A stretch of DNA of 45,313 bases, from NCBI RefSeq assembly GCF_003334315.1, contig NZ_QOWR01000038.1. One strand, given 5' to 3'. The DNA is from Escherichia coli. GTDB lineage: Bacteria > Pseudomonadota > Gammaproteobacteria > Enterobacterales > Enterobacteriaceae. Made by a program: the position numbers. Numbering within the stretch: the first letter of the stretch is position 1; each line of letters opens with the position of its first letter. This document shows positions 40,101 to 43,100 of this stretch, piece after piece.

Positions 40101-43100
40101 AATAAAATAAATGGTAGTATGATTAAAGCAGAAAGATGAAAGCAAGAACCTATCCCAATATATAATAAAAACTGTTTTTTATTCCCCTCAATTAAAGATA
40201 ATATCGCACACAGTACAAAGGCGACAGCTGCTGTTTGTCTTATCAATGAAAAAGAAGGGAGATACATAACACATATAACGCCAAAGACGCCAAGGAACCC
40301 TCTCATTTTTTTGGTTGAAAATAATGCCGTCAGTGTTATTAATGACATTATCATAAACATCAGTTGAGGTTCTTTTGATATATAATTACTTAGAGTTACG
40401 ACTAAATAAAATCCAACTTCAACATTAGAATTAACAAAGCTATCATGAATAATGTCATTATAAAGTCTAACATAATTCACATAGTCGGTTCCAATGTCAG
40501 TTCGTAAAGCGGATATAACCAAAAGAATTATAAATGTAGATGCAAAAAAGAAGCTATTTTGAACTCTAAATATTGAATTTCGCGGTAAAGAATTCAATAC
40601 TAAGCATGCAGCTAAGATTATTAAATAAAACACACAAATTTCCTTTAATCAAGTTCATATGATGATTTATTTGGGTAAATCGATGCAAATGCAACATGTA
40701 TTTTATTCTTAGCAACAACAAAGTTTTTAATATCATCATCATCATTTATTACCAATATATTGCTTTTTTTGTTTTCAATCACACTTGTGATCTCGTCAAT
40801 ATTTCCATCAGTAACTGAATAATATTTAGCATATTTATATAAATTAAATGGTTTATAATTCCCAGTACATAATTGCCAATATCTAAAAAGGTATTGATTT
40901 ACATCGTCATTAGTTCTAAATTTCTGCTTTGCAGTCTTGACAAGAATATCTTTTTTTTCCAGCCAAACATCATCAAATGTGCTTTTTAAGTATGGTTGAG
41001 GAAGATGATGATCAAAAAAACCTGTAATACGAGGCCAAGGCATTAATAATAAACTTCGTAAAGATTTTTCAGGATATTTATAAGAAAACACACCCGATAT
41101 ATTTTTCTTAACAACTTCTTTTTTGTTAAAGGATTCGTTAATTTCCTTTATATCGTTCATAATGATATGAGATATATTTCCACAATCAAGAGCATTAAAT
41201 GCAAATGTATCACATGGTATTGTTTTTTTAAAAAAATAGGATTCCGGTATATTCTTTAATGTAAAAAAATCATCATTAAAGTAAATAAATCTCTCTGACA
41301 ACCCCTCAATTTTATGTAAGAATATCTCAATAACATGAGAACTAAAAAGAGGTAAATATTCCGATGGAATGTAATCAGAATGGTTAACAACCTTCAATTT
41401 TTTATTTTTAATATTTAGCCATTCGGGTATGTGTCCACATGTTATAAAATAGATAGTTCTAACCCATGGCATATTTTCTTCTATGCCTCTAAACCAGTAA
41501 CGCATCAAATCCCAATCACGAAAGCGAGACGTCGCTGAATGAGTATCACTGCAAGCAGGTTTATTTTTATAATATTCCTTTTGCCAATCAGGATCGTTAG
41601 AATCAACCCATGGTATAACAATATCTACAGGTTCCACTTTTATTTCCTTAAACCTAGTTCTCTTAAGAGCTTGGCAAATTTTAATTTTGATATAATATAG
41701 AGCAGATATATTCTATTTAATAATGGAGCATTTCTTTGCTTCGCAATTTTTAATTTTTCTTGAAATAACGCAATTCTTTGTTTTGCAGAAACCCCATTCC
41801 ATTTAAAAATGGAAATATACTGTGGTACAGGATAAAATATAGCACCAGCGTTCAATAAATCTATGCTTAATAAATGGTCAGCACATATTTTATAATTTAA
41901 ATCATATTTATAATGTTTAAGTAAATTGAAGCGATACAGCGTTGATTGATGGCATGCTGGCATATAAATCCATTTTTGATTTATAGACTTAACCTTTTCA
42001 TACTTAAATACTGAACCAGTATCAATAATTACACCGCCACCAATTATATCGGGACTATTCTCGTCATTAACCTGGCTGATCACTTCATTTAATACTTCAT
42101 CTTGATAAAAAACATCACCCGCATTTAAAAAAATAACCCAATCACCAGTTACATATTGTAGTGATTTATTCATCGCATCATATATACCATTATCTTTTTC
42201 ACTTACGACTGTGGTTATTTTATCTTTAAATTTTTCTAGTACATCTAAAGTCCCATCTGTTGATGCACCATCAATAACAATATACTCAATTTCCTTGTAA
42301 GTTTGCTTCAAAACACTATTTATTGTAACTTCAAGATCATTTGCAGCATTGTAAACGACTGTCACTATAGAAATTTTAAACATTCGTTCCCTTACAAAAT
42401 ATCGGTAATTTATTTTTAATTATCACATACATCATCAATTGATTAACAACGAGTTCAGTAATAAGTACTGTAATAGCAGCACCAAGTGCGCCATAAGAAT
42501 ACACCGCTGGGAATATACATATCATTGCGATAACACCACCAGTTATTACGATTTTGCTAAACATTTTAGCCATATTCAGAACAAGTAACGTCTGATAACC
42601 GAAAACATTACTTACAGCAATAATAAAGGGCATGCCTGATAAAATTTTCATAATGACTATTGATGAATGATAATCGCTCCCGTATAAAAATAATATCAAT
42701 TCTTTACTGTATATGAACAATAATAAGCTAATAATAAATGCAATACCACCTTGTACTTTGAGCAATTTTCTAATCACATCAAAAGCATGCTCCCTATTGT
42801 TTTTCATAAGAGCATTTATTCTTGGATATAATGCCTGAGACACAGGCCCAATTAATCCTTGTATAGCTAATCGTATTTTATCTGCTGCTGTGAAATATCC
42901 AACAATGGTTGGATTGGTAAAAATACCTAAAATCACGGTAATACTTCCAGTATAAATATTAATCGCGGCAGTTGAGATAAAAATATGCCATGCAGAAGCT
43001 AATTCTAATTTCATTTCAGGCCATGTTGGTGAATACCATTTAATCCATTTCTTTTCTATAACTATTGCTAATGCGATGCACCCAGACAGGATAAAAGTTA

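Follow-up and report, generated by a model that had tools for sequence, protein, structure and literature searches.

A gene of the Stealth family that lies inside an O-antigen-type gene cluster of Escherichia coli raises the question of whether its product is a complete enzyme and, if so, what it would contribute to the surface polysaccharide. The DNA analysed is the entire 45,313-bp contig of the E. coli draft assembly GCA_003334315.1 (record QOWR01000038.1), hereafter the window, where the gene occupies positions 40645..41637 of the minus strand as an open reading frame (ORF) of 993 nt (stop codon counted), with a GTG start and a product of 330 amino acids (aa; WP_087893963.1). A Shine-Dalgarno-like AAGGA is found about 7 nt 5' of this start, right behind the stop codon of the preceding GT2 glycosyltransferase gene. 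The ORF, the Pfam matches, the profile alignment and the AlphaFold/Foldseek comparisons point to a putative glycosyl-1-phosphate transferase of the type represented by WfgC, and we consider it probable (about 0.8) that the gene encodes a complete single-domain enzyme of this type, which would add one sugar-1-phosphate to the repeat unit of an O-antigen. The activity, the single and non-processive addition, the donor and the acceptor are all deduced from comparisons with related proteins and their clusters.

Family membership and completeness of the Stealth protein

The conserved regions of the Stealth family (CR1 to CR3 and, less surely, CR4) can be traced along the protein. Stealth_CR2 (PF11380) is matched at residues 38-139 (E = 4.3e-40; model positions 1-103 of 108) and Stealth_CR1 (PF17101) at residues 2-22 (E = 5.7e-6), where the sequence VDIVIPWVD represents an IDVVYTW-type motif. 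Because of these two E-values, and because long ORFs are rare at the G+C content of 29-30% found around the gene, the match lies far beyond chance. Such a G+C content is usual for O-antigen clusters. The two motifs from which the preliminary description had recognised the family can be found letter for letter in the protein, DIVIPWVDSNDPDW at residues 5-18 and a second one of 38 letters at residues 38-75, and the assignment itself is borne out by the Pfam, profile and Foldseek results. The other two Pfam models match weakly, Stealth_CR3 at the expected place (residues 210-248; E = 0.0035), and Stealth_CR4 with E = 0.31, which is not significant by itself though likewise at the expected place. 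These scores seem to be weak because the two models are short and not owing to any defect of the window protein. Among 59 colinear full-length homologues, CR2 is matched at E <= 0.001 in all 59, CR1 in 56, CR3 in 50 and CR4 in 20. Searches of the window Stealth protein against NCBIfam and PHROGs gave no match, and the same was true of the neighbouring Wzy in NCBIfam.

A profile made from the homologues aligns with N-acetylglucosamine (GlcNAc)-1-phosphotransferase of human, zebrafish and fly in blocks covering residues 4-143 (CR1 and CR2), 208-274 (CR3) and 272-327 (CR4), and with CpsY in two blocks, 3-138 and 194-321. By this family profile, CR3 is placed at about residues 208-274 and holds R241, while CR4 is placed at about 272-327 and holds V-I-N298-D299; the N121-D122-D123 motif falls within CR2. 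V-I-N298-D299 aligns with the CLND of GNPTAB and CpsY, a Val replacing the Cys at the first position of the C(L/I)ND tetrapeptide. Moreover, a C-terminal S-x-F-E motif is common to the homologue profile, GNPTAB and CpsY, and the window protein ends in S-S-Y-E-L-D. The AlphaFold model is a compact single domain with no disordered segment (pLDDT 95.5, pTM 0.93). Its 13 best PDB matches in Foldseek are all GNPTAB (TMq about 0.75) or Mycobacterium tuberculosis CpsY (TMt 0.86-0.90), with E-values from 1e-17 to 1e-21, and retaining GT-A enzymes (glycogenin, GT6 family) follow far behind at about 1e-5.

The preliminary description had found the protein shorter than the capsule Stealth enzymes and advised a check of its completeness, a concern that the homologues dispel. 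The best 120 of 2,214 database matches (E <= 1e-10) are all 323-346 aa long with about 99% coverage, and hence 330 aa is the standard size of the WfgC-type branch rather than the result of truncation; the Stealth proteins of the O152 and O173 families have 330 and 332 aa, respectively. In addition, a 320-residue fragment of CpsY that spans CR1 to CR4 keeps full activity (PMC10668966). Longer capsule Stealth enzymes carry extra regions, whereas the window protein, as modelled, is a bare catalytic core without an extra domain. Judged from its sequence and predicted fold, the window gene encodes a complete Stealth-family enzyme of normal size.

Mutagenesis or modelling has identified E305, N322, D324 (Mg2+) and R419 (phosphate) as functionally important residues of CpsY (PMC10668966). 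They align with E104, N121, D123 and R241 of the window protein, and D122, D123 and R241 are invariant across the alignment of the 59 Stealth sequences. This conservation bears on the suggestion that the protein, despite its Stealth fold, is an ordinary retaining glycosyltransferase that moves the sugar without its phosphate. The fold is indeed distantly related to that of the retaining GT-A enzymes that appeared among the Foldseek matches, and the three glycosyltransferases of the cluster together with one such Stealth enzyme would also suit a five-sugar unit lacking phosphate. However, the phosphate-contacting R241 is conserved along with the other residues supported in CpsY, and the Stealth enzymes whose activity is covered in two studies are all described or proposed as sugar-1-phosphate transferases (PMC3989065, PMC10668966). 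We regard an ordinary glycosyltransferase as very improbable.

The gene cluster and the predicted repeat unit

On the minus strand the order of elements is galF, JUMPstart, wzx, GT2, Stealth, wzy, GT4, gmd, fcl, gmm, manC, GT2 and manB, and all 12 cluster ORFs are intact in the window. The first of them, galF (43962..44855; 297 aa), is a divergent allele of E. coli. The JUMPstart RNA element (43653..43691; Rfam RF01707, 60.5 bits against a gathering score of 35) contains the ops sequence GGCGGTAGCGTG and precedes wzx, 6 nt upstream of its start; this element signals where an RfaH-type polysaccharide operon begins. The O-unit flippase gene wzx (42376..43647) is a 423-aa ORF, annotated with 419 aa elsewhere, and is followed by a gene for a WcaE-like glycosyltransferase of the GT2 family (GT2a, 41640..42383; 247 aa). 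On the other side of the Stealth gene are found wzy (39557..40633), encoding an O-antigen polymerase of the EpsG family (358 aa; PF14897), and a retaining-type GT4 glycosyltransferase gene (38454..39527; 357 aa). The sugar-nucleotide genes comprise gmd (37334..38461), located between GT4 and fcl, then fcl itself for GDP-L-fucose synthase (36366..37331), gmm for a GDP-mannose mannosyl hydrolase of the NUDIX family (35902..36402), manC for mannose-1-phosphate guanylyltransferase/mannose-6-phosphate isomerase (34481..35896) and manB for phosphomannomutase (32308..33738), all on the minus strand. The earlier statement that a Wzx/Wzy-type cluster here also makes GDP-L-fucose is in agreement with the wzx, wzy, gmd, fcl, gmm, manC and manB genes found. 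The gene had also been placed between wzx and wzy, which is right with the correction that GT2a separates it from wzx.

A second WcaE-like GT2 gene (GT2b, 33735..34481, minus strand; 248 aa) is wedged between manC and manB. A WcaE-like GT2 in this position is known from the O-antigen cluster of epidemic Aeromonas hydrophila, for which the best match was the copy of Shigella dysenteriae 1012 at 67% (PMC3835674).

When 5,426 complete E. coli genomes were searched for distant DNA matches, three classes of Stealth genes emerged. The first belongs to an SE11-type cluster, present in strain SE11 and four other complete genomes, whose wzx and wzy are named 'O173 family' by NCBI; the second belongs to an 'O152 family' cluster with rhamnose genes where the window cluster has fucose genes; and the third encodes a 363-aa Stealth protein in kps-type ATP-binding cassette (ABC) transporter capsule loci. 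Since E. coli does carry Stealth genes of this third class, and the protein family is the same, the window gene could be thought to encode a capsule polymerase that makes a poly(hexose-phosphate) homopolymer processively, as the Stealth enzymes of Neisseria meningitidis serogroups A and X do. The window gene is, however, part of a wzx-wzy cluster with three glycosyltransferases and JUMPstart, and no kps or ABC-transporter capsule genes, nor any kps/ctr-type locus of the kind that defines such polymerases, occur in the window. Its product is a bare catalytic core, and it shares 29% identity with the 363-aa kps-locus protein versus 46% with the O-antigen Stealth proteins (46.2% over 325 aa, full length, for the O173 family; 45.7% over 326 aa, colinear end to end, for WfgC of the O152 family). 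Both the Wzx/Wzy setting and the single domain of about 330 aa colinear with WfgC are those of the WfgC-type group, and a capsule polymerase seems to us hardly credible. As a separate observation, the 363-aa Stealth gene of EC6868 (CP095083 784059-798179) and about 30 other complete genomes adjoins a gene for a 1,173-aa protein of the CDP-glycerol glycerophosphotransferase family, which suggests that the capsule of this kps locus holds both hexose-phosphate and glycerol-phosphate.

As a WfgC-type transferase, the Stealth enzyme would be a soluble cytoplasmic protein acting on an undecaprenyl-diphosphate-linked O-unit. No initiating transferase was found in the cluster, and the unit is therefore probably started by the housekeeping WecA, as is usually inferred for E. 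coli O-antigen clusters (PMC7685785). The enzyme would take a nucleotide sugar and move the whole sugar-1-phosphate onto a hydroxyl of the growing repeat unit with release of the nucleoside monophosphate, the N121-D122-D123 motif holding a divalent metal and R241 contacting the phosphate. The outcome would be one phosphodiester (sugar-1-P-sugar) link per repeat unit, in which the anomeric configuration of the donor is retained. The remaining residues would be added by the three ordinary glycosyltransferases (the two WcaE-like GT2 enzymes and the GT4), at least one of them being L-fucose supplied by gmd and fcl, before the O-unit is flipped by Wzx and polymerised by Wzy. From three glycosyltransferases, the Stealth enzyme and a WecA start, we infer a five-residue unit in which L-fucose occurs at least once, together with one sugar-phosphate; a fucosylated repeat unit with a phosphodiester is a reasonable prediction for this cluster. 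As for the donor, our estimates are our own judgement and not computed: UDP-GlcNAc has an even chance and is favoured because of the analogy with WfgC, CpsY and GNPTAB, UDP-glucose or UDP-galactose is a possible but weaker candidate, and GDP-fucose or GDP-mannose appears doubtful.

Location, mobile copies and polymorphism

The window copy of the cluster is not found next to gnd. Identity of 100% to ordinary E. coli chromosomes, from the yia operon to yiaU, ends at window position 30903 inside the 3' end of yiaV, and from there a full ISAs1 element leads to manB, so that the cluster adjoins yiaU/yiaV. The transposase gene of this element, of the ISAs1 family (H-repeat), occupies 31076..32215 on the plus strand. 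The same yiaU-ISAs1-manB junction recurs in the independent assembly ERR271230. On the opposite side, an IS1 transposase fragment (44876..45313, minus strand) is located 20 nt upstream of galF and runs off the contig end. Elsewhere in the window, in the malS/avtA region, a match to the small RNA family ES036 (CssrF) of Rfam was noticed (18898-18940, minus strand; 46.1 bits against a gathering score of 37.6), which is unrelated to the Stealth gene.

The window galF shares 99% identity with its chromosomal counterpart in NCTC9699 and in a few more strains, and 80-90% with that of most E. coli. Likewise, the wcaM-galF flank preserved in some copies of the cluster agrees at 99% identity with the canonical locus of NCTC9699 (O28ac/O42-family), whereas against the typical E. 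coli strain examined wcaM reaches about 74% and galF about 81%. By sequence comparison this flank is a deeply divergent haplotype common to unrelated O-types. A non-E. coli origin, raised by the value of 74% for wcaM, was rejected in view of the 99% identity to NCTC9699, which also places the origin of the cluster at the usual E. coli locus.

The Stealth gene of the window is present in only one of the 5,426 complete E. coli genomes, on plasmid p3575-NDM-5 between copies of IS26. The whole cluster occurs on four of 72,556 plasmids, two of them from E. coli (p3575-NDM-5 and pdm277c_NDM5, both named NDM-5) and two from Citrobacter portucalensis. In total, the operon (window 32308-44855) is found as IS26-bounded cargo with 99.7-100% identity on plasmids, on a plasmid-like contig and in a Klebsiella chromosome. 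The contig, of 90 kb, belongs to S. dysenteriae 1012 and carries the cluster between IS26 copies with an IS1 in manC; for these reasons the idea that the cluster is the serotype locus of that strain was rejected. In the IS26-bounded copy of the Klebsiella sp. chromosome, the gene calls of wzx and fcl are shortened. Our literature searches found no description of this cluster in its IS26-bounded or plasmid-borne form.

With one error-prone assembly discounted, 14 copies of the 12.5-kb cluster are 99.9-100% identical and differ by only about five shared polymorphisms, which are concentrated in the Stealth gene. At position 1 of its codon 124 (window 41268) all four bases occur among the copies, giving Phe, Ile, Val or Leu at the residue that directly follows the catalytic N-D-D motif. 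A 3-nt indel at 40743-40745 changes the Asp run after N298, by the CR4 motif, from DDDD to DDD and splits a 330-aa chromosomal type from a 329-aa plasmid type. This pattern suggests either selection on the enzyme or a mutational hot spot.

These observations bear on whether the gene has any phenotype in its present host. The enzyme might be intact and the cluster a mere passenger, that is, a second O-antigen locus mobilised by insertion sequences (IS) and now silent or decaying. The junction to yiaU/yiaV via ISAs1 rather than to gnd and the IS1 upstream of galF would fit such a history, as would the near-identical copies that are carried between IS26 elements on plasmids and in the chromosome of a Klebsiella, some with disrupted genes. 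Yet the window and several plasmid copies hold the 12 ORFs and JUMPstart in intact form, and the few polymorphisms gather in the Stealth gene at one residue beside the catalytic motif, which looks like selection and not like neutral decay. Moreover, an ISAs1-mediated inversion of the sole O-antigen locus of the strain could equally give the yiaU junction. We consider a passenger cluster unlikely. Several points nevertheless weigh against a WfgC-type enzyme that modifies an O-antigen of this strain: the weak CR4 score given above; the position of the window copy outside the usual galF-gnd context, which could be that of a second, possibly unexpressed O-antigen locus; the decay visible in some mobile copies (manC of S. 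dysenteriae 1012, wzx and fcl of Klebsiella); and the window wzx and wzy, which fit neither O173 nor O152, so that none of the six E. coli O-antigens with sugar-P-sugar links can be assigned to the cluster.

A more far-reaching and rather doubtful combination of these results would be that the cluster specifies a phosphodiester-containing fucosylated O-antigen outside the six known E. coli phospho-O-antigens and, at the same time, represents a mobile serotype cassette. Such a cassette would have been excised from the canonical E. coli locus, be spread between IS26 copies on plasmids (including those with blaNDM-5) among E. coli, Shigella, Citrobacter and Klebsiella, and have been integrated beside yiaU in the window lineage, with the changes at residue 124 as adaptive tuning of the phosphotransferase. 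The surroundings of the gene are in any case more noteworthy than the gene itself: together with IS26, a complete O-antigen operon is passed between genera on carbapenemase plasmids. If expressed, the operon could change the serotype, phage susceptibility and serum resistance of its recipients. In-silico serotyping would be misled as well.

Comparison with known systems

Sugar-phosphate transferases of the Stealth family have been known before from Wzy-dependent O-antigen clusters, as has an E. coli cluster combining fucose and phosphate, that of the O173 family. The preliminary description treats the known Stealth proteins of bacteria as capsule polymerases, which is incomplete: WfgC of E. 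coli O152 and S. dysenteriae 12 and a homologue in Haemophilus parainfluenzae strain 20 have been described from Wzy-dependent O-antigen loci (PMC3989065). WfgC is predicted to form an alpha-GlcNAc-1-P-6-alpha-Glc link (PMC3989065). The combination of a Stealth gene with fucose had likewise been left unmatched, but the O173 family cluster has the same repertoire, and both O173 and O84 carry sugar-P-sugar links (PMC9912281). Six E. coli serogroups possess such links, namely O84, O152, O160, O172, O173 and O181, and beta-L-fucosyl phosphate is present in O84 (PMC9912281). The value of the Stealth finding lies mainly in annotation, as it gives the protein a WfgC-type name and flags the cluster as a distinct O-genotype.

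E. coli O62 offers a precedent: its O-antigen cluster, acquired horizontally and located away from galF-gnd, is functional at an unusual place in the chromosome and involves IS elements (cited in PMC7685785). The O62 cluster differs in its genes, with no Stealth gene reported, and the window-type cluster once sat at the canonical locus. The clusters of O20, O57 and O60 are also said to lie elsewhere on the chromosome (PMC7685785), and the window cluster was considered as one of these 'missing' clusters. This is unlikely, as none of these three belongs to the six serogroups that have sugar-P-sugar links. Literature searches yielded nothing usable on the newly located O20, O57 and O60 clusters or on the gene cluster or structure of O173.

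The gene order of the window is shared with other Enterobacterales. An identical 12-gene order is found at the canonical wcaM-galF...gnd locus of Buttiauxella agrestis (AP023184) and of another enterobacterial genome (L023), and its first part only in Citrobacter sedlakii. Across these three, the orthologues are 59-65% (Stealth), 60-66% (Wzx) and 44-48% (Wzy) identical to those of the window, and GT2b is 75-83% identical in Buttiauxella and L023. GT4 is the sole gene that is not homologous to its counterpart in these two genomes, where a different GT4 stands in its place. Since the clusters of O173, O152, Buttiauxella and L023 all lack a counterpart of the window GT4, this is a swapped, type-specific gene, while the order kept across genera argues for selection on the whole set. 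Compared at the level of sequence, this is a conserved family of O-antigen clusters, widespread and selected, with one variable transferase.

The O152 family, represented here by strain LH13-b, resembles the window cluster in the 330 aa of its Stealth protein and in the Stealth gene adjoining wzy within a Wzx/Wzy cluster. In contrast, it makes dTDP-rhamnose (rfbBDAC and a WbsX-family transferase) and not GDP-fucose, its Wzx and Wzy are only 31% and 33% identical to those of the window, and its GT2 matches GT2a and GT2b in part, at 26-33% identity. The O173 family, represented by SE11, is closer in content. It shares the repertoire of wzx, wzy, Stealth, two GT2, one GT4 and gmd-fcl-gmm-manC-manB, with gmd 82% and fcl 74% identical to the window; the Wzx proteins share 60.3% identity, GT2a and the O173-specific GT2 48.4%, and the Wzy proteins 34%. 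However, the gene order is not that of the window cluster, GT2b matches the O173 GT2s weakly (29-34%, partly over partial length), and manB is of another type (23% identity). No detectable match to the window GT4 was found in the GT4 of either O173 or O152. The Stealth proteins of O173 and O152 are themselves 48.6% identical.

The O173-specific GT2 and its window homologue GT2a are likely fucosyltransferases, because the O173 enzyme has no O152 equivalent; this subtraction of O152 from O173 partly relies on a fucose versus rhamnose branch, in which we take the two to differ. In SE11 itself (NC_011415 2350040-2368276), 'O173 family' wzx and wzy and GDP-fucose genes were observed with no rhamnose genes. 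As we take this strain to be of serotype O152:H28, a discrepancy between serotype and genotype is possible.

Where NCBI has annotated identical copies, their wzx and wzy are called only 'flippase' and 'EpsG family protein' with no serogroup-family name, which suggests a cluster type outside the named serogroups. That the cluster is serogroup O173 itself was rejected, since beside the shared repertoire Wzx and Wzy reach only 60% and 34% identity and the gene order is another; for the same reasons we propose a related but distinct O-type.

Outside the O-antigen clusters, CpsY (fragment 201-520; PDB 8J2N) and the catalytic domain of GNPTAB (7S6N, 7SJ2, 9BGF) have the same fold as the window protein (Foldseek E about 1e-21) and apparently the CR1 to CR4 architecture in common with it, and the Mg2+-binding and phosphate-binding residues are kept, whereas sequence identity is about 18-20%. 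GNPTAB differs in large insertions between the conserved regions and in acting on the glycans of lysosomal enzymes, and CpsY in an N-terminal extension of 200 residues and in a glucan as its in vitro acceptor. On the basis of these sequence comparisons, the window protein can be named a WfgC-type glycosyl-1-phosphate transferase, encoded in a distinct O-antigen cluster that is related to those of O173 and O152.

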